In this document: piece by piece, positions 15,328-23,761 of the stretch
Numbering within the stretch: the stretch's first letter is position 1
Layout: each line of letters starts with the position of its first letter
DNA from: Bacillus subtilis subsp. subtilis str. 168
GTDB taxonomy: Bacteria > Bacillota > Bacilli > Bacillales > Bacillaceae
Length of the DNA: 32,000 nt
Reading direction: 5' to 3'
Assembly: GCF_000009045.1 (NCBI RefSeq)
Contig: NC_000964.3
Coordinates: 4,080,001-4,112,000, forward strand
Translations under genes and position numbers: made by a program
Notes under the pieces: model-generated
The model's input: only the letters and a program-made list of their open reading frames with translations
Database searches by the model: none
What the model was told of the DNA's origin: nothing

Positions 15328-15358
15328 AAAAGGCGCTTCCTTAGAGGAGCGCCTTTTA
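15328..15358. terminator. Bidirectional terminator between convergent aldX and yxbD
   Basis: The hairpin is AAAGGCGCTTCC-TTAG-AGGAGCGCCTTTT. Confidence 0.75.
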
Positions 15359-15835
15359 TTGTAACTCCTTGACCAAAAGCAATTCATCACGGATAGGTAT
15401 TTTATTATCTGCCAGTAAAGGAATTTCGGGCTTCATCTTTCTGGCCGTCTCGACTGCATTCACAAATAGTCGATCCAACCGGTACCCTCTCTTCTGATAA
15501 AACGCTAATGCATGAATATTATCATTGGTTGTGATCAGTTTTATTTGTTTGATATTTCTCTCTCTGCATGCTTCCTCGGCTTTCTCTAGCAGAGCTGTTC
15601 CGATCCCTTTATTCTCAATGACACTATCCAGCGAAATGATTTCACAGGCATCTTCTTCAAATATGTATGTAATAAGGCCAACAATCTGGTTATCATCGTT
15701 GAGCATTCCATAACCATCTAATTCATCGCAGTTATAAATACCGCTAGAAATAACCATTTGCGGACTGCCCCAGTGTTTTTGAAAAAACGCGGAAACAAGA
15801 TCTTTAGGTACCTGGCATGTCGGAATAATATTCAT
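15356..15835 (-). CDS. yxbD: YxbD, GNAT-family N-acetyltransferase
   Basis: This 159-aa ORF has the GNAT motif A (ENKGIGTALLEKAE) and the C-terminal AFYQKRGY motif, with SD AAAGGAGGAA upstream. No terminator separates it from the upstream yxbC. Confidence 0.9.
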   Translation of the reverse strand: MNIIPTCQVPKDLVSAFFQKHWGSPQMVISSGIYNCDELDGYGMLNDDNQIVGLITYIFEEDACEIISLDSVIENKGIGTALLEKAEEACRERNIKQIKLITTNDNIHALAFYQKRGYRLDRLFVNAVETARKMKPEIPLLADNKIPIRDELLLVKELQ

Positions 15836-15914: not shown

Positions 15915-16907
15915 CTAGAACTTATAACTTGTCAAAAGCTGTCTGAATACCAATTGCGTGGATTGATAAGGATCAAAATCTGAATCCTGAGATTGGAAGA
16001 TTTGCTCTGGGGTCAATGTCTCTGCGTTCTCTGATAACGTTTGAATCAGACTTTCCAAATATCCATTTAACTCTGATTTGGACGATTCATGTAGGGATTG
16101 ATGATTTACAGCGAGTTCTCTAAATCTGTTATCACTGATTAATTTTTTTCGAAGAGCTGCTAGCATCAAGTCAAGCCATGCAGGCTGGCCAAATGTAATA
16201 TTTAAAGCTAACGTTGCTTGATCAGATTTGGTGGAGTGCCATAAACCTCTTGGCAAATACAGCATGGTTCCCGGTGTTAAATTAACGATTTCTGCATCTG
16301 GCAGATCCTCTTTTGGCGGATCTCCTTTCCAATATGACTGTAAATCATCAGGATAGTAAGGAGCCTCTGATAAATCATAGTGCTGCATTGGATTGCTCAC
16401 ATTTTCATTCTTGGCAAGCTTCCATGTTTTCTCACCTTGAATTTGAAAAATCAAGTTGGTGTAGGCGTCAAAATGGGCTTTGAATCCCCCGCCATTTTTC
16501 GCCGCGTAAACAATGGCTTTGGAAGAAGTACCCGCAGGCAGTCTTAATTCCGCTTTGAGTTTTTCTATCCACCTTCTGACTTGGGGAATAAATAGGTCGG
16601 TGAAATCAAACTCTAATGCAGCCCCTTTTTCATACCACTCTAAAGCCTCTGCAGGTGACACAAGAAATCTGTCTGTGATCCCTTCAGATTCTTCAATCAC
16701 AGCATCACCAACGACCATGACTGGATTATTGTAGATAGCCAATACGTTTTCTAGCGTTCTAACCTTTTCAAACCCCGGTATGCTTGTAAATCTCTCCACT
16801 TCTCCTCTGGCTACCAAAGGTTTTACAGGCCAATATTCTTCTAAAAACTCACTCATCGTTACAGGACTGATGATAGACTCCAAAACCGATTCGGTTACAG
16901 CACTCAT
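15915..16907 (-). CDS. yxbC: YxbC, JmjC/cupin-4-type Fe(II)/2-oxoglutarate oxygenase
   Basis: The track ORF is trimmed to the ATG at 16907 (MSAVTESVLES...), after GGGAGGGA. It has the HxD...H facial triad (FKAHFDAY ... LYLPRGLWHST) typical of JmjC/ribosomal-oxygenase-like cupins. The length is 330 aa. Confidence 0.88.
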   Translation of the reverse strand: MSAVTESVLESIISPVTMSEFLEEYWPVKPLVARGEVERFTSIPGFEKVRTLENVLAIYNNPVMVVGDAVIEESEGITDRFLVSPAEALEWYEKGAALEFDFTDLFIPQVRRWIEKLKAELRLPAGTSSKAIVYAAKNGGGFKAHFDAYTNLIFQIQGEKTWKLAKNENVSNPMQHYDLSEAPYYPDDLQSYWKGDPPKEDLPDAEIVNLTPGTMLYLPRGLWHSTKSDQATLALNITFGQPAWLDLMLAALRKKLISDNRFRELAVNHQSLHESSKSELNGYLESLIQTLSENAETLTPEQIFQSQDSDFDPYQSTQLVFRQLLTSYKF

Positions 16908-16971
16908 ATTATCCCTCCCAAAAAAAGTAACTTCACCACAAAGATATAACATTTTTTTCTAAAAGTAAATA

Positions 16972-17000
16972 TTGACAGAATTATCAGAGGATTATAATAT
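16972..17000 (+). promoter_or_regulatory. Sigma-A promoter of the peptide/yxbB-asnH operon
   Basis: A perfect TTGACA lies at 16972-16977. The -10 is either TATAAT at 16993-16998 (15-nt spacer) or TAATAT at 16995-17000 (17-nt spacer). The predicted transcription start is about 17005-17008. Confidence 0.6.
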
Positions 17001-17048: not shown

Positions 17049-17117
17049 ATGAAAAAGGCTTATAAGAAACCTCGTCTTTTTGAACTGCGCCGTGCTGTAG
17101 CAGCTGGCGGCCATTAA
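17049..17117 (+). CDS. 22-aa peptide MKKAYKKPRLFELRRAVAAGGH, copy 1 (candidate RiPP/scaffold precursor)
   Basis: The ATG lies 6 nt after GGAGGG and the stop is TAA. It is too short for the ORF track. It is identical at the peptide level to copies 2 and 3, and differs from copy 2 only at wobble positions. Confidence 0.7.
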   Translation: MKKAYKKPRLFELRRAVAAGGH

Positions 17118-17166: not shown

Positions 17167-17235
17167 ATGAAAAAAGCTTATAAGAAACCTCGCCTTTTTG
17201 AACTGCGCCGTGCTGTAGCAGCTGGCGGCCATTAA
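17167..17235 (+). CDS. 22-aa peptide MKKAYKKPRLFELRRAVAAGGH, copy 2
   Basis: The ATG lies 8 nt after AGGAGG (17153-17158) and the stop is TAA. The peptide is the same as copy 1. Confidence 0.7.
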   Translation: MKKAYKKPRLFELRRAVAAGGH

Positions 17236-17284: not shown

Positions 17285-17353
17285 ATGAAAAAAGCTTATA
17301 AGAAACCTCGCCTTTTTGAATTGCGCCGCGCTGTAGCAGCTGGCGGTCATTAA
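17285..17353 (+). CDS. 22-aa peptide MKKAYKKPRLFELRRAVAAGGH, copy 3
   Basis: The ATG lies 8 nt after AGGAGG (17271-17276) and the stop is TAA. It has three synonymous changes relative to copy 2 (CTG>TTG, CGT>CGC, GGC>GGT). Confidence 0.7.
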   Translation: MKKAYKKPRLFELRRAVAAGGH

Positions 17354-17415: not shown

Positions 17416-18150
17416 ATGATTACGGCTGAAGAATGCAGAACGTACAAAGAATTTGTTGATCTTTACCAATCCTATCTTTACCCCTTGCTTGGCGCCAGAC
17501 TGTCCCGGATGTATTCCCCCAAAAACAAAGTCATTATCGATATGGGCACAGGTCCAGGTTATTTAAGCATTCAGTTGGCTAAAAGAACAAATGCGCACGT
17601 GCATGCTGTCGATATTAACCCGGCCATGCATGAAATCGCTCAAGAAGAAGCTAAAAAAAGCGGAGTAAGCAGCCTGATTTCATTTGATTTGGAAGATGTC
17701 CACCATTTATCTTACGCTGACCAATATGCTGACTTCATCGTCTCCTACTCTTGCCTGCATCATTGGGAAGACGTTGTTAAAGGACTTAAAGAGTGCTATA
17801 GAGTTCTGGCTCCGGGCGGAAAAATTGTCATTTTGGATACATTTAATCCCCAAGGAAGCCATTTAGAGATTATGCGAAAACAAATCAAAGAACCGGAATA
17901 CTTCAGGTTTGTAAGAGAGGCATTTGAAGAAAGTTATTCCTTTGAAGACATTCACCAGTTTGTTCAGGATGCCGGCATTCCCAATTATTCATTAGAAACC
18001 TTTCACTTTTTACCGGAGGATTTTATAGAAAGCTTAGATGAGCTGGAGGATGCTCCCCTGTGGGAACAAAATGATCAAAGTACTGATCATGAAATTGAGT
18101 CTGTCACATGGATGTTAACGATAGAAAAAGAAAAGGAAGGTGCATTGTAA
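17416..18150 (+). CDS. yxbB: YxbB, class I SAM-dependent methyltransferase
   Basis: The track ORF is trimmed to the ATG at 17416 ([13 protein letters not shown]...), 9 nt after AAGGAGG. It has SAM motif I ([12 protein letters not shown]) and the post-I/II motifs ([23 protein letters not shown]). The length is 244 aa. Confidence 0.9.
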
Positions 18151-18419
18151 TGATCAATGAATCAACTGTTTTATCCAAAAATCCAGAAATGCCATCAAGA
18201 AAATATTTGAAAAGCATTATTATAGAGCCGGGCATCACTTTAAATGAAATGGCATCAGATATTTATAACCATATCGACGGCAAGGTCAGCATACATGATA
18301 TTTGCTCAAAAATCGTCAATGAATATGATGTTGATTATCAAACCTGCTTAGAAGATTGTATGGAGCTGTTTGAGTTGCTTATTGATCATGAAGCAATCAA
18401 AGTTAAGCAGGGGGCATGA
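18150..18419 (+). CDS. yxbA: YxbA, PqqD-like small protein (candidate RiPP recognition element)
   Basis: The ATG overlaps the yxbB stop (TAATG) and SD AAGGAAGGTG lies upstream. The 89-aa sequence ...[58 protein letters not shown] follows the PqqD pattern: a beta-strand, then x-W/Y-xxxDG-x-xxxxxI, then helices. Confidence 0.85.
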
Positions 18420-18422
18420 GAA

Positions 18423-18905
18423 TTGGAAAAACAAAAAGTGCTTGCTTTACCAGACGATGTACATGAGCTGAGTACACACCGTTCTAAATCAATCGTAAAT
18501 TACATCATCACTCTGCTTGCCTTTGCCAAAAAACAAGGATTGACTCATCAAGATATTGTAAGCTGGATTCACGAGCAATATGAGGAAAGAGGATATTATG
18601 ATGAGTGGAGACACATTAACAGCCAACAACCAGTTGGATCATTTGTGGAACTCTTTATAAAAGGAAGACGTTTACTTTATGACAAAATTGAATTGTTTGA
18701 AACAGAAGATAAATATGTCGTAAATACCCACACTTGGTATGAAAAAGAACCTAGTGAGGCCTTTTTTTATTTTGAAATTGATCCCGAAGAATTTTCTGCG
18801 TACGCTTCCATTCTCGCAATCGAAAACGCAAAACGTCTCGGAATTAAAATCGATATTGTAAAAGAAACAGATGTAGAGACAGCTTATATCTATAAACATC
18901 AATAA
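18423..18905 (+). CDS. yxnB: YxnB, 160-aa acidic protein with no recognisable family
   Basis: The ORF starts at a TTG 3 nt after the yxbA stop, so the exact start is uncertain. The codon usage is coherent and the gene is tightly packed in the operon. Confidence 0.8.
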   Translation: MEKQKVLALPDDVHELSTHRSKSIVNYIITLLAFAKKQGLTHQDIVSWIHEQYEERGYYDEWRHINSQQPVGSFVELFIKGRRLLYDKIELFETEDKYVVNTHTWYEKEPSEAFFYFEIDPEEFSAYASILAIENAKRLGIKIDIVKETDVETAYIYKHQ

Positions 18906-18925: not shown

Positions 18926-21169
18926 ATGTGCGGGCTCGCGGGTATTATAAATCTGGCTGCTCCCCGTTCTCAGGAATGTACCTTTCATATATTGAAAGGC
19001 ATGGCAGATGCCATCAGCTATAGGGGACCGGATGATGAACAATATCATATTGATTCCAAAGTCGGCTTTGCATTTCGGCGATTGTCCATTCTTGACCTTG
19101 TAAATGGACAGCAGCCCTTTTTAAATGAGGATGGATCAATCGTCGTTATGGTAAATGGAGAAATTTATAACTATAAAGAACTGAAGGCTTCTTTACACAA
19201 TCATATGTTTAAAACGACATCTGATTGTGAAGTAATTGTTCATTTATATGAAGAAAAAGGGATTGGATTTGTAGACGACATCATCGGAATGTTTTCAATA
19301 GCCATTTGGGACAAAAATAAAAACAAAGTATTTTTAGTTCGTGACCGCTTTGGGATTAAACCGCTTTTTTACACAGAGCTAAAACACGAGCTTATATTTG
19401 CCTCTGAAATAAAATCCCTATTTTCTCATCCTCACTGTCCCCGCCAATTTAATTGGAAAGAAGCACTCTCAGACATTTGGCTAAGCGGGGAAGCAGCCAG
19501 TAATCATAAAGAAACCACTTCCTTTTTTGTAAACATCCAAAATCTCGATGCTGGCCATTATCTCGAAATTAATTTGACAACAAATGAACGAAAAACAGCA
19601 AGCTATTGGTCTTTACAGGATATTTTGCTCAGGCAAGGCTATCGTGAGAATCTCCATCCCGATGACCTGATTGAAGGATATAGAGAACTGCTGGCAGATT
19701 CAGTCCATAGATGTTTACAAAGCGACGTTGAAGTCGGGTTGTTTCTTAGCGGTGGCATTGATTCAGCTGCAGTCGCACATTTTGCTGCAGAAAAACAGGA
19801 TCTCCATACGTTTACAGTATTAAGCCAAAGTACATTTACAAATGAAGATGCAAAATATGCCCATTGGCTGGCTAAAGATTTACACCTTCCAAATCATCAG
19901 GTTCTCTATCAATTAGGGAACGATGAGTTATTACAACCAGAGTCATATAAACATTTGTTATGGATCTGTGAAACACCGTTTTGCGGACCGGAACAATTAT
20001 ATAAGTTTCATTTACATAAGTATGCCAAAGCGATAAGGCCAAACCTGAAAGTCATGCTGACCGGCCAGGGCAGCGACGAATTTAACGGCGGTTACAGCAC
20101 GACACTTTCACCAGCCGAGAACCCAAGTTGGGAAGGATTTATTGAATCGGTCAATACGATGGAGATGAACCGGCTGCATCGGCTGCAGGGAAATATCTTT
20201 AGAGTGTGGGAGGAGCATTTTGGACTTTCTCCTATAAACCTTTCTTATTTAAAGAGCAATGATTCCAGCCAAGCAGATCCTTGGCAATCGTATGTCCTGA
20301 CAAAATACCGTGATCTGCAAATGTATAATTGCTGGCATGAAGATCGGATCGCCGCGGCTAATCATATCGAAAACCGTGTACCGTTCTTGGACCATCGGCT
20401 TGTTGAATGGGTTTGCGGAATACCTGATGGACTCCGTAAAGACTTGTTATGGGATAAGTCGGTATTGCGAAAATCATTAACAAATGAGCTGCATACAAGC
20501 TATACCCACCGGCCAAAGGTTCCTTTTTTCTATGGTAAGGACGTGAGATATACACATAAAATGATGTTTCATCTTCTGAAGAAAAACAATTATCAGCTTA
20601 TAGAGGAGGCCTTCTCTCACAGCGATGCCTCCAGCATAATACAGGTTGAACACATTCATGCCATCATGACATATTTGGAGGATGATCCTGAGTTTACAAA
20701 TTTTGAATTTTTATTAAGACTGGTGAACATGGGACTTTTATCAAAAATGACTAAAGAAACCCCTTCTGTTCAATTAGACATAACCAGCCATTTAGAATCG
20801 ATAACAATAAAAGACTGGCACTCACAGGAAGGTGATATTGCCAGTCGTTTAAATATCTCAGCCAATAAGTGTGAAGGACAAGATATTTTGGCGCTAAACC
20901 CTGGCGTCACTCTGTTAAGGCCGGAAAGCGATAGTGAGCATTGCATCTACATTGCGGAAGAAGGATTTATTCAGTTTATTGTTTCGGAGGAAGACGTCGG
21001 AGCTTGGCTGCATATTCTCTGCGATATTAATGGAAAAGACACACTTCATACGATTTTAGACAGACATGGTGTCAGCCTTGAAGAAGTGGCCAAATATATT
21101 CAAGAAGCCATCGAACACAATATCATTTTGATCAAACAAAAAAATCTGCCAGAAGGAGCATATAGATGA
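18926..21169 (+). CDS. asnH: AsnH, asparagine synthetase (glutamine-hydrolysing)-type amidotransferase with a C-terminal extension of about 120 aa
   Basis: The track ORF is trimmed to the ATG at 18926, giving MCGLAG with the Ntn Cys2 nucleophile, after GGGAGGGAG. The PP-loop SGGIDS is at 19748-19765. The length is 747 aa, against about 615-630 aa for the housekeeping AsnB/AsnO. Confidence 0.94.
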   Translation: MCGLAGIINLAAPRSQECTFHILKGMADAISYRGPDDEQYHIDSKVGFAFRRLSILDLVNGQQPFLNEDGSIVVMVNGEIYNYKELKASLHNHMFKTTSDCEVIVHLYEEKGIGFVDDIIGMFSIAIWDKNKNKVFLVRDRFGIKPLFYTELKHELIFASEIKSLFSHPHCPRQFNWKEALSDIWLSGEAASNHKETTSFFVNIQNLDAGHYLEINLTTNERKTASYWSLQDILLRQGYRENLHPDDLIEGYRELLADSVHRCLQSDVEVGLFLSGGIDSAAVAHFAAEKQDLHTFTVLSQSTFTNEDAKYAHWLAKDLHLPNHQVLYQLGNDELLQPESYKHLLWICETPFCGPEQLYKFHLHKYAKAIRPNLKVMLTGQGSDEFNGGYSTTLSPAENPSWEGFIESVNTMEMNRLHRLQGNIFRVWEEHFGLSPINLSYLKSNDSSQADPWQSYVLTKYRDLQMYNCWHEDRIAAANHIENRVPFLDHRLVEWVCGIPDGLRKDLLWDKSVLRKSLTNELHTSYTHRPKVPFFYGKDVRYTHKMMFHLLKKNNYQLIEEAFSHSDASSIIQVEHIHAIMTYLEDDPEFTNFEFLLRLVNMGLLSKMTKETPSVQLDITSHLESITIKDWHSQEGDIASRLNISANKCEGQDILALNPGVTLLRPESDSEHCIYIAEEGFIQFIVSEEDVGAWLHILCDINGKDTLHTILDRHGVSLEEVAKYIQEAIEHNIILIKQKNLPEGAYR

Positions 21170-22365
21170 GCATCTTTTATTCGTTTTCCGCACTTAGGGG
21201 ATTAGCAATGGGGATTTTTTCGCCTATTTGGATTCTTTATCTGATATCTAAAGATTATGATTTCCTTCAGATTGGATTAATGGGAGCGGTACTTGAAATT
21301 GCTAAGCTTATATTTGAAGTTCCTTCCGGCGTTTTTGCTGATCGTTATGGAATTAAAATTTCAATTGCCAGTTCATTCTTTTTCTCCATCCTTACATGGG
21401 CCTTCTTCCCTTTTATCGATTCAGCTGCTATTTGCATACTGGCTATGATCATATGGGCTTTATCAGATTCCTTAATTTCCGGTTCTTTTGAAACTTGGAT
21501 GAGCCGTGTCGCAGGGGAAGATCGATTCGGCAAAGAAATGATGAAAAACACACAATTGCTAATCACTTTTTTAATTATTGGAAGTATTGCCAGCGGGTAT
21601 TTGTATTCATTAAATATCTATTTTCCTTTCCTGCTCGTTATGGTGATCTACTTATTACTATTTATTTGGATGTCTGTATTTATTAAAGTCCCTTCTGTTT
21701 CCGAAACAAATCATGGGGATCAGAACCAACATGATTCGATAAAGATTATCAAAGAAAGTTTAAAAATTATCTTTAACAAAAAAAGGGTTCTTTTAATCGT
21801 CATAGCCGGTTTCTTTACAGCCACAGCCTATGACACAATTTCCCGTTACTGGCAGCCTTTTTTGAGTGATTTAGGCTTTTCAGAAAAGTCACTGGGATAT
21901 ATTTTTGCCCTAGGAGGGTTTACCGCTCTCGTTCTTTTGACATTAACCATCAGGTTCGAAAAGAAGATCGAAAAAAATCCATATCTCGCTTTAACCTCAT
22001 TGGATTCCATGGGCATGGTCATGACTTTTCTATTGTCTAGAGCATTCAGGCCGCTGGGCATTCCATGTACAGCGTTTTTGCTTGCAATTGAAGATATTCA
22101 TCATCCGATCGTAACAAGTTACTTAAATAAGTTTTTCCCCGATTCATACAAGAACACACTTTTCTCGTTAAACTCAGGGGTAGGAGCAATTGGAGAAATT
22201 CTTTCCGGTGTCATTTTCGGCATCATTTCCGCAGCCTTTGGGCTCTCTGCCATGTTTGTTGTTGTAGCTGTATTTCTATTAATCCCTATTATCCTTTATA
22301 CGATAGTGCCTAAGATTAAAGACAATGATATGAAAGTTCAGATTGAAAAATCCCAGCAAGTGTAA
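21166..22365 (+). CDS. yxaM: YxaM, MFS transporter (candidate exporter)
   Basis: This 399-aa ORF has its ATG overlapping the asnH stop (ATGA). It has about 12 hydrophobic segments, with a central loop around aa 185-200. Confidence 0.9.
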   Translation: MSIFYSFSALRGLAMGIFSPIWILYLISKDYDFLQIGLMGAVLEIAKLIFEVPSGVFADRYGIKISIASSFFFSILTWAFFPFIDSAAICILAMIIWALSDSLISGSFETWMSRVAGEDRFGKEMMKNTQLLITFLIIGSIASGYLYSLNIYFPFLLVMVIYLLLFIWMSVFIKVPSVSETNHGDQNQHDSIKIIKESLKIIFNKKRVLLIVIAGFFTATAYDTISRYWQPFLSDLGFSEKSLGYIFALGGFTALVLLTLTIRFEKKIEKNPYLALTSLDSMGMVMTFLLSRAFRPLGIPCTAFLLAIEDIHHPIVTSYLNKFFPDSYKNTLFSLNSGVGAIGEILSGVIFGIISAAFGLSAMFVVVAVFLLIPIILYTIVPKIKDNDMKVQIEKSQQV

Positions 22366-22428: not shown

Positions 22429-23661
22429 TTATTTCCCAAAAGCCATCAGCTTCGTATAACTTCCAATATAAAGTGTTCCGTCCTCAGCGAGCTGAGGAGA
22501 AGACACGACGTTGCTGTCGGTTTGATAGCTCCATAATTCATTGCCGTTTGCGTCTGCCGCATAAACCTTCATATCATCTGACCCGAAATAAACCGTTCCC
22601 TTCGCGTCAATCAGCGGCGCCGTTCTGACAGGGCCGTCTGTGTAGAATGACCAGTTCATATCCCCGTTTTTGCTGATGGAAAACAGCTCGCCGCTTCCTG
22701 AGCCGATGTAGATATTGCCATTATGATCAATCGCAGGAGATGAGCTGGAGAACCCGTTTAGCGGGAATGTCCATTTCAAACTGCCTGTTGATGTATAAGC
22801 ATACAGCTGTCCATCTTGGTTGCCGGCATAAATGTTTCCGTCCTTATCAATCACCGGATATCCTTTAAACGCATTTGACGTCGTTCTGGACCATTTCACC
22901 TGTCCGGTTCCGGAGTTGATCGCATAAAACACGTAATTATATGTGCCGACATACACGGTGCCGTTTTTGGCAAGCACCGGCACAGAGCTGACGACCCCAT
23001 TTGTTTTCAACTTCCAGCGCTCTGTCCAGGTTGATTTTGACGTCGGTTTGATCGCGTGAACATAATTATCAAGTGTTGAGAAATACAACGTCCCGTCTGA
23101 ACCGATCACCGTTTCAGAGCTTGGCCCGCCGCTTAACGGAACCGTTGTTAAAATTTCTCCCGTTTCTTTGTCAATAAAATAAATCTTTTTGTCATAGGAT
23201 GCCAAATAGATAACGCCGTTGGTCCCAAGTACAGGAGATTGCGTATATGTTTTTCCAAGATTGCCCGTCACCCATTTGACTGAGCCGTCTGGATTAAAGG
23301 CTTTCATTTCCCCGTCTCTGGAATGAAGATATACTGTGCCGTCTCCGTCAATCACAGCCCCCGCTCCATTTTGCGGAGTCGTTCTGATGTCGTTTTGCCA
23401 TTTCAGCGTCCCGTCTGTATTTCCGGCGAACCGGCTTTCGCGTGACCAGTTAAACATGGCAGGCGCCATCGCTTGTACATCATATCTTCCTGGCAAAAAG
23501 CCAGATGCTCCATTATTTTGAGAAAACACCGTTTCCGCCGCATAAGCAGCTGTCGGCTGAAGCACTTTGGCAGCGGGCACATCAGAAACAGCGCCGGCCG
23601 AAACAGCCGCCGCCACCGCAGCTCCCGCAATCAAAGCTTTCATACGAAATGACTTGACCAT
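22429..23661 (-). CDS. yxaL: YxaL, secreted PQQ-like repeat beta-propeller protein
   Basis: The track ORF is trimmed to MVKSFRMKALIAGAAVAAAV... (410 aa). It has a signal peptide followed by repeated G-x-hydrophobic-Y-hydrophobic-G/S...W blades (GTVYLHS, GVIYLAS, GTLYFST, GTVYVGT, GNIYAGN, GNIYIGS, GTVYFGS, GTLYIGS). Confidence 0.9.
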   Translation of the reverse strand: MVKSFRMKALIAGAAVAAAVSAGAVSDVPAAKVLQPTAAYAAETVFSQNNGASGFLPGRYDVQAMAPAMFNWSRESRFAGNTDGTLKWQNDIRTTPQNGAGAVIDGDGTVYLHSRDGEMKAFNPDGSVKWVTGNLGKTYTQSPVLGTNGVIYLASYDKKIYFIDKETGEILTTVPLSGGPSSETVIGSDGTLYFSTLDNYVHAIKPTSKSTWTERWKLKTNGVVSSVPVLAKNGTVYVGTYNYVFYAINSGTGQVKWSRTTSNAFKGYPVIDKDGNIYAGNQDGQLYAYTSTGSLKWTFPLNGFSSSSPAIDHNGNIYIGSGSGELFSISKNGDMNWSFYTDGPVRTAPLIDAKGTVYFGSDDMKVYAADANGNELWSYQTDSNVVSSPQLAEDGTLYIGSYTKLMAFGK

Positions 23662-23761
23662 CATTGAGACCCCCATTATATGTAACTTCTAATTTGTGAC
23701 CATCATAACATATTCATCCATTTTATAAATCTATTTCACAAAAACATCACAAACTAGAAAA

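Follow-up and report, generated by a model that had tools for sequence, protein, structure and literature searches.

A preprint of 24 September 2026 described a group of asparagine synthetase-like (AS-like) enzymes with a fused C-terminal recognition element (RRE) for peptides that are synthesized ribosomally and modified post-translationally (RiPPs), referred to as "cluster 58", which co-occur with discrete RREs of family PF05402 (79 %) and major facilitator superfamily (MFS) transporters (54 %) and whose precursors are 21/22-mers with an N-terminal YxxP motif (PMC13622209). FzmA, the peptidyl-hydrazide synthetase of fosfazinomycin, turns the carboxylate at the C-terminus of the 22-mer FzmZ into a hydrazide with glutamylhydrazine (Glu-NHNH2) as its natural donor, while L-glutamine supplies ammonia for the amide and Glu-NHOH supplies hydroxylamine for the hydroxamate; the next step belongs to a methyltransferase (PMC13622209). 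PesC, TsrC and ScdTA, likewise AS-like, convert the C-termini of RiPPs into amides or nitriles, PesC forming the amide first and then the nitrile (PMC13060819). The main text of the preprint mentions neither Bacillus nor AsnH (PMC13622209). Here, this enzyme is considered in a window of 32,000 nucleotides from Bacillus subtilis subsp. subtilis str. 168 (contig NC_000964.3, positions 4,080,001 to 4,112,000), where asnH (18926..21169, plus strand) encodes, as judged from the open reading frame (ORF), its translation, Pfam and an AlphaFold model, an AS-like amidotransferase of 747 amino acids with a fused C-terminal RRE-type domain. AsnH most likely modifies a peptide within a cryptic pathway of the RiPP type and is not primarily an asparagine synthetase; what is new is that, on this reading, it joins the recently described FzmA-like class, with a distinct sub-family whose peptides end in Gly-Gly-His (GGH-type).

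FzmA itself is encoded in the fzm cluster of Streptomyces sp. NRRL F-2747 (locus L004, the same strain as in the preprint), which includes a methyltransferase and a phosphoenolpyruvate mutase; immediately upstream of its AS-like gene stands MKVYVKPEAKKVDQGTIVAAVR, a YxxP peptide ending in VR that is FzmZ. The identity between FzmA and AsnH is 37 % over residues 1-743, and AsnH is 35-39 % identical to the Streptomyces members of cluster 58, which places it just below the network threshold of about 40 % used in the preprint. Like FzmA, AsnH is about 745 residues long, combines the Cys nucleophile and a PP-loop with an RRE fused at the C-terminus, adjoins a 22-mer with an N-terminal YxxP, and lies beside a discrete PF05402 RRE (YxbA), an MFS transporter (YxaM) and an S-adenosylmethionine (SAM) methyltransferase. 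Unlike that of FzmA, its peptide ends in an invariant GGH instead of VR and has a spacer of 17 instead of 18 residues from the Tyr to the C-terminus; the AsnH cluster is without phosphonate, hydrazine, nucleotidyltransferase or AurF genes, and possesses a JmjC enzyme (YxbC), YxnB, a GNAT protein and three precursor copies. With PesC, TsrC and ScdTA, the proposed reaction of AsnH would share the use of ATP to adenylate the carboxylate at a peptide's C-terminus, with glutamine as the nitrogen source; however, they are not described as carrying a fused RRE, they have precursors and clusters unlike those of AsnH, and PesC is still active, less efficiently, on leader-less truncated peptides. The asnH locus was also considered as a nitrilobacillin pes cluster, which the different enzymes (multinuclear non-heme iron oxidase (MNIO), HExxH) and precursors rule out.

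Regarding the catalytic core, an earlier note, made from the DNA letters alone, had placed an MCGLAG N-terminus with the N-terminal nucleophile (Ntn) of a glutaminase and an intact SGGIDS motif in AsnH, had called the protein about 120 residues longer than housekeeping asparagine synthetases, and had deduced nitrogen transfer rather than lactam formation. The translation of 18926-21169 bears out the N-terminus, with the Cys2 codon at 18929..18931 (plus strand); the SGGIDS PP-loop, the ATP pyrophosphatase motif, lies exactly at 19748..19765 (plus strand) and corresponds to residues 275-280; and the excess length is roughly right, as the 747 residues compare with 553 in Escherichia coli AsnB (1ct9) and 623 in the closest solved relative (7ylz). 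Pfam recognises GATase_7/GATase_6 at residues 35-166 and Asn_synthase at 252-586, with no significant match past residue 586. A search of 5.8 billion proteins returned thousands of relatives, and nearly all of the best 120 have 720-770 residues and cover 95-100 % of the query, thus including the tail; the phyla represented are Bacillota, Actinomycetota, Pseudomonadota and Chloroflexota. When 101 full-length homologues of these four phyla are aligned, M1, C2, G3, R52, N77, G78 and D100 prove invariant, and so do L274, S275, G276, G277, D279 and S280 of the PP-loop region, while W631, W694, L698 and G703 of the tail are at least 90 % conserved, so that these features are not due to chance and are under selection. 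Lasso cyclases and beta-lactam synthetase are not known to carry the Cys nucleophile. The deduction of nitrogen transfer agrees with the invariant Cys2 and with the homologue FzmA, which makes a C-terminal hydrazide, amide or hydroxamate on a 22-mer.

The same note had seen in the C-terminal extension a second PqqD-type RRE, and the tail sequence that it quoted is found, with LALNPGV starting at nucleotide 20888 where "about 20880" had been given. The AlphaFold model of full-length AsnH has a predicted local distance difference test (pLDDT) of 94.1 and a predicted template modelling score of 0.93, and places a helical linker at residues 590-650 ahead of an RRE-like winged-helix domain of about 90 residues (about 654-740; 20885..21145, plus strand), which is supported by Foldseek, hhalign and the conserved W694, L698 and G703. 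A model of the tail alone, built from 52 tails (pLDDT 92.4), has strands at 16-19, 28-33 and 36-42 of the tail, followed by helices at 43-55, 62-69 and 73-85; in protein numbering, the strands are 661-664, 673-678 and 681-687, then three helices, and this arrangement is the same in both models. The top Foldseek matches of the tail in the Protein Data Bank (PDB) comprise the PbtF RRE with a bound peptide (8t19, probability 0.96), TbiB1 with its leader peptide (5v1v, template modelling scores of 0.57/0.64), the peptide clamp of MccB, McbB and the C-terminal domain of GdmN, as well as the winged-helix domains of NO66 and MINA53; those of PbtF, TbiB1, MccB and McbB are RRE domains whose structures were determined together with peptides. 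By hhalign, the 52 tails align over the whole domain (85 columns) with seven discrete PqqD-type RREs, namely YxbA, five from actinomycetes and the PqqD domain that protein P0118 has in addition to its tail, at 90.5 % probability and an E-value of 1.4e-6, where the criterion for an RRE in HH-type searches is a probability of at least 90 %.

The Pfam and NCBIfam matches of the tail are weak and confined to winged helices (DnaD_N, MarR_2, HTH_47, PaaA-like_N), its profile against PDB sequences gave winged-helix matches below threshold, with the PqqD structure 5sxy at an E-value of 0.21, and a word-index protein search with the tail alone gave no matches. When 1.84 billion representatives were searched exhaustively with phmmer, the tail turned up solely at the C-termini of AS-like proteins or of fragments thereof. 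Compared with the discrete RREs PqqD, TbiB1 and the PbtF RRE, the tail has a shorter alpha2-alpha3 segment and an additional N-terminal hairpin strand and C-terminal strand, and it falls under the detection limit of the Pfam PqqD hidden Markov model (HMM). In P0118, an AsnH-type tail is followed in tandem by a PqqD domain that Pfam recognises; hence the tail is an RRE that is distinct and divergent, and not a mis-annotated YxbA. Structure prediction, the RRE and peptide-clamp matches and the profile alignment thus sustain the RRE-type fold of the tail, and its being a second RRE accords with the tandem in P0118 and with YxbA, which passes the Pfam PqqD cutoff. On these models, the assignment of the tail as an RRE-type domain is supported, and it would serve to dock a peptide, as the neighbouring YxxP peptides and the FzmA-FzmZ model of the preprint (PMC13622209) indirectly suggest.

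The earlier note had also argued that the substrate is a peptide rather than free aspartate, and three candidate genes are indeed located at the head of the operon. The asnH operon leader contains a 118-bp unit repeated 2.6 times in tandem, in which three ORFs preceded by ribosome-binding sites (RBS; 17049..17117, 17167..17235 and 17285..17353, all plus strand) encode the identical predicted 22-mer MKKAYKKPRLFELRRAVAAGGH of the YxxP...GGH type; a sigma-A-type promoter-like site, TTGACA-17-TAATAT, which is a pattern match only (10/12 in a consensus scan), precedes the array at 16972..17000 (plus strand). The three copies differ at five nucleotide sites, all of them synonymous, and between the Bacillus and Halobacillus peptide genes 12 codons differ, two of them non-synonymously; the YxxP...GGH peptide is under purifying selection. 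Halobacillus and B. altitudinis likewise possess three peptide copies, MKKAYKKPRVFELRRA[V/I]VAGGH and MKKVYKTPRLVEIRNVVVAGGH, respectively, and the GGH-type peptides of Micromonospora and Streptantibioticus are MKKVYRKPVALELRRMVVDGGH and MKKYVAPRVVEVRQATVLGGH, which extends the conservation across phyla. Altogether, YxxP 21/22-mers adjoin the AS-like gene in 13 loci, the window included, and besides the FzmZ locus there are nine further actinomycete loci where a YxxP 22-mer precedes it; additionally to the 13, the B. thuringiensis locus (L083) opens at the contig edge with ...GGH*. Within each type, the Tyr stands at a constant distance from the C-terminus, 17 residues in every GGH-type and 18 in every FzmZ-type peptide, which fits a tether model where the N-terminus is gripped by the RRE and the adenylation site is within reach of the C-terminus.

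The peptide and the whole set of genes around it are kept from Bacillus to Micromonospora and Streptantibioticus: GGH-type loci share a methyltransferase, a PqqD protein, YxnB, an MFS transporter, the AS-like enzyme and a JmjC protein, and those of Bacillota also a GNAT. In the window, yxbB (17416..18150, plus strand), starting with ATG after an AAGGAGG RBS, encodes a class I SAM methyltransferase (Pfam Methyltransf_11/25) with orthologues in L083, L084 (Halobacillus), L085 (B. altitudinis) and the actinomycete loci L011 and L019. It is followed by yxbA (18150..18419, plus strand), a discrete PqqD-family RRE (PF05402, 42.2 bits against a cutoff of 23.4) whose gene adjoins the methyltransferase gene in all GGH-type clusters, and by yxnB (18423..18905, plus strand), a conserved protein of 160 residues. 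YxnB has been called unique in the B. subtilis literature, and its homologues are confined to GGH-type clusters, the family reaching Micromonospora and Streptantibioticus and always lying inside such clusters; no match was obtained in Pfam, NCBIfam or a PDB profile search. A single weak match to Transglut_core, in one of eight members (E-value 0.04), was dismissed because there is no invariant Cys or His, the invariant residues including R19, Y26, W47, Y52 and R81. Downstream of asnH, yxaM (21166..22365, plus strand; PF07690) encodes an MFS transporter and putative exporter, and all GGH-type clusters have an MFS gene.

Two genes on the minus strand are co-conserved with the operon. The first, yxbC (15915..16952, minus strand; PF08007), is divergently transcribed and encodes a JmjC Fe/2-oxoglutarate oxygenase, the structures of which are in the PDB as 7zcc and as 1vrb, the latter under the label "putative asparaginyl hydroxylase". 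Among characterised proteins, it is closest to the histidyl hydroxylases MINA53 and NO66, and in L011 and L019 the AS-like gene has the counterpart of yxbC directly downstream. CzlI, a YxbC-like JmjC enzyme, hydroxylates a RiPP precursor (PMC11575548). YxbC may hydroxylate the C-terminal His of the peptide, and hydroxylation and/or methylation of this conserved His is a reasonable guess. The second, yxbD (15356..15835, minus strand), encodes a GNAT acetyltransferase and probably belongs to the pathway, as its orthologues in B. thuringiensis and Halobacillus, 51-52 % identical, are the cluster genes that directly follow the one for the MFS transporter; in the B. altitudinis cluster, a GNAT of 329 residues takes the place of YxnB. 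Peptide-sensing quorum regulators of the RNPP family (HTH_3 + RNPP_C) are encoded near two clusters, in L083 (7666-8559, minus strand) and L084 (2911-3879, plus strand). The convergent gene downstream in the window (22429-23676, minus strand) encodes a secreted beta-propeller with PQQ_2/BamB-like repeats by Pfam; in other genomes it does not accompany the cluster, and it is probably unrelated.

By analogy with FzmA, PesC and TsrC, the following order of events can be proposed for AsnH. The three leader ORFs would yield the 22-mer, the YxxP motif of which would dock on the AsnH tail, and the fixed spacer of 17 residues would bring the carboxylate of the C-terminal His to the PP-loop site, where His22 would be adenylated with ATP. 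The Cys2 glutaminase domain would then hydrolyse glutamine, and the ammonia released would attack the acyl-adenylate to form a C-terminal carboxamide; a second ATP-dependent step to the nitrile, or a glutamine analogue as the donor, is a possible extension. Glutamine is the parsimonious donor, since GGH-type clusters are without hydrazine- or hydroxylamine-forming genes. YxbA would probably present the peptide to YxbB, YxbC, YxnB and YxbD, and YxaM would export the product. More tentatively, with the odds somewhat against it as a whole, B. subtilis 168, its relatives and some actinomycetes may derive an undiscovered natural product from the Gly-Gly-His with which a ribosomal scaffold peptide ends: AsnH would turn the His carboxylate into an amide or other nitrogen function, and YxbC, YxbB, YxbD and YxnB would tailor it further. 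The exported compound may then be a small histidine-derived molecule freed by proteolysis, as with fosfazinomycin, and not a classical peptide, and the "RNA-stabilising sequence triplication" of the operon would be an array of three precursor genes enclosed by a conserved RNA helix.

The strongest competitor concerns the product and not the substrate: AsnH would add something other than a simple amide, either a nitrile in two ATP steps, as with PesC, or another nitrogen nucleophile from a glutamine analogue, as with FzmA and TsnB9. The acceptance of Glu-NHNH2, Glu-NHOH and glutamine by FzmA (PMC13622209) and the amide-to-nitrile sequence of PesC (PMC13060819) lend it some weight, and 7ylz, the solved structure nearest to AsnH in sequence, is a hydroxyamidotransferase. 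However, hydrazine- or hydroxylamine-forming genes were not seen in GGH-type clusters, and this outcome is rather doubtful. Glutamine is the default nitrogen donor for a class-II glutamine amidotransferase domain.

A second alternative would make AsnH an asparagine synthetase proper, expressed under certain conditions, with a tail that is a regulatory or oligomerisation winged helix unrelated to peptides. AsnH is still listed as an asparagine synthetase in 2024, has the two-domain catalytic core and motifs of asparagine synthetase B (E. coli AsnB 1ct9; B. subtilis AsnB/AsnO) with the full glutaminase and synthetase residues, and scores above the NCBIfam equivalog cutoff for asparagine synthase (TIGR01536, asn_synth_AEB; 361.1 against 267.1 bits). 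It also reportedly complements an E. coli asparagine auxotroph (Yoshida 1999, as cited in PMC5485061), which implies some Asp-to-Asn activity. Both the equivalog score and this activity count against a peptide-modifying role, together with further points: the identity to FzmA is 37 % and the natural donor of FzmA is glutamylhydrazine, so that the nucleophile and product of AsnH are proposed by analogy; the translation of the small ORFs and their binding by the tail are predictions from sequence; the Foldseek E-values of the tail are modest, all at least 0.044 and none at or below 0.001; and the HMM scan did not bear out the resemblance to PqqD, as neither Pfam PF05402 nor the NCBIfam PqqD models match the AsnH tail or any of the 52 tails.

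An asparagine synthetase, however, hardly explains operon partners and a YxxP...GGH peptide that are conserved across phyla, nor a tail homologous to PqqD RREs, and relative to 1ct9 AsnH adds about 190 residues of helical linker and RRE. Moreover, its homologue FzmA works on a peptide, and an earlier test with free arginine, as related in the preprint, formed no hydrazide (PMC13622209). Unlike asparagine synthetase B, AsnH is encoded in a peptide-encoding operon and is dispensable, the deletion of asnH in B. subtilis having no growth or muropeptide/cell-wall phenotype (PMC5485061); a role in the amidation of meso-diaminopimelic acid was likewise rejected from the literature (PMC5485061). A dedicated asparagine synthetase is thus improbable. 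As for a lasso-type cyclase making an isopeptide or lactam in a small peptide with YxbA as the B1 RRE, the combination of an AsnB-superfamily enzyme, a PqqD-type RRE and a YxxPxL-type leader motif recalls lasso systems and there is a partial likeness to NF033535, but its score is far under the cutoff (190 against 525 bits in NCBIfam), Cys2 is invariant, the RRE is fused to the enzyme itself, no B2/transglutaminase-like protease is present in the cluster (YxnB being without invariant Cys or His), and the precursor has just 22 residues with the C-terminal GGH as its conserved feature, so that the HMM score, the retained Cys and the missing protease rule this identity out, leaving it next to no likelihood.

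Regarding the leader RNA, the 5' triplication of the asnH operon has been read as an RNA stabiliser in published work (Morinaga 2010, as cited in other papers), and Table 1 of Irnov 2010 gives 617 cDNAs for a 420-nt yxbB leader; induction of the operon falls in the transition phase, in rich sporulation medium. A perfect long-range inverted repeat of 11-14 nt flanks the three-gene array in Bacillus (window 17009-17020/17379-17390), Halobacillus (L084 5078-5088/5445-5455) and B. altitudinis (L085 3256-3269/3610-3623), and its sequence is wholly different among the three. The structure being kept and the sequence not, a functional RNA helix around the precursor genes is suggested, and the "RNA-stabilising" element reported by Morinaga 2010 may be this helix.

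Tail-bearing AS-like enzymes are also encoded at more distant loci in Electrothrix, Thiotrichaceae, Thiomargarita and Bradyrhizobium, where they adjoin one to four precursors of 41-62 residues with a conserved leader and a hypervariable C-terminal core (L002 7350-7893; L001 7689-7835; L082 4910-5098; L086 3272-4292), in the company of a C39-ATP-binding cassette exporter or of a PatG-like protease with a prolyl oligopeptidase. In these four groups of clusters no separate PqqD gene was found, and the tail is therefore the sole candidate RRE there, which suggests leader-guided modification of variable C-termini. P0118 (L081 4301-14959, Logan SRR15183925 contig) is a triple fusion of an AS-like core, the tail RRE and a PqqD detectable by Pfam; a YxxP 22-mer, MKRYSKPTAKKVDFGAVIKGNA, precedes its gene, and AurF-like, NDK-like, PhyH, YcaO and TfuA genes lie downstream. 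This locus is a different pathway, not previously characterised.

For 25 years, up to 2024, AsnH has been listed as one of three asparagine synthetases in the Gram-positive bacterium that has been studied best. A RiPP-type reading of its operon would account for the lack of an asparagine phenotype in asnH mutants, gives testable functions to six genes that are little understood, yxbD, yxbC, yxbB, yxbA, yxnB and yxaM, and points to an undescribed metabolite in a genetically tractable host. It would also extend the FzmA class, with its AS-like core, fused RRE and 22-mer "ruler" peptide, past phosphonate pathways and into Bacillota, a class that is of interest for the enzymatic modification of peptide C-termini.

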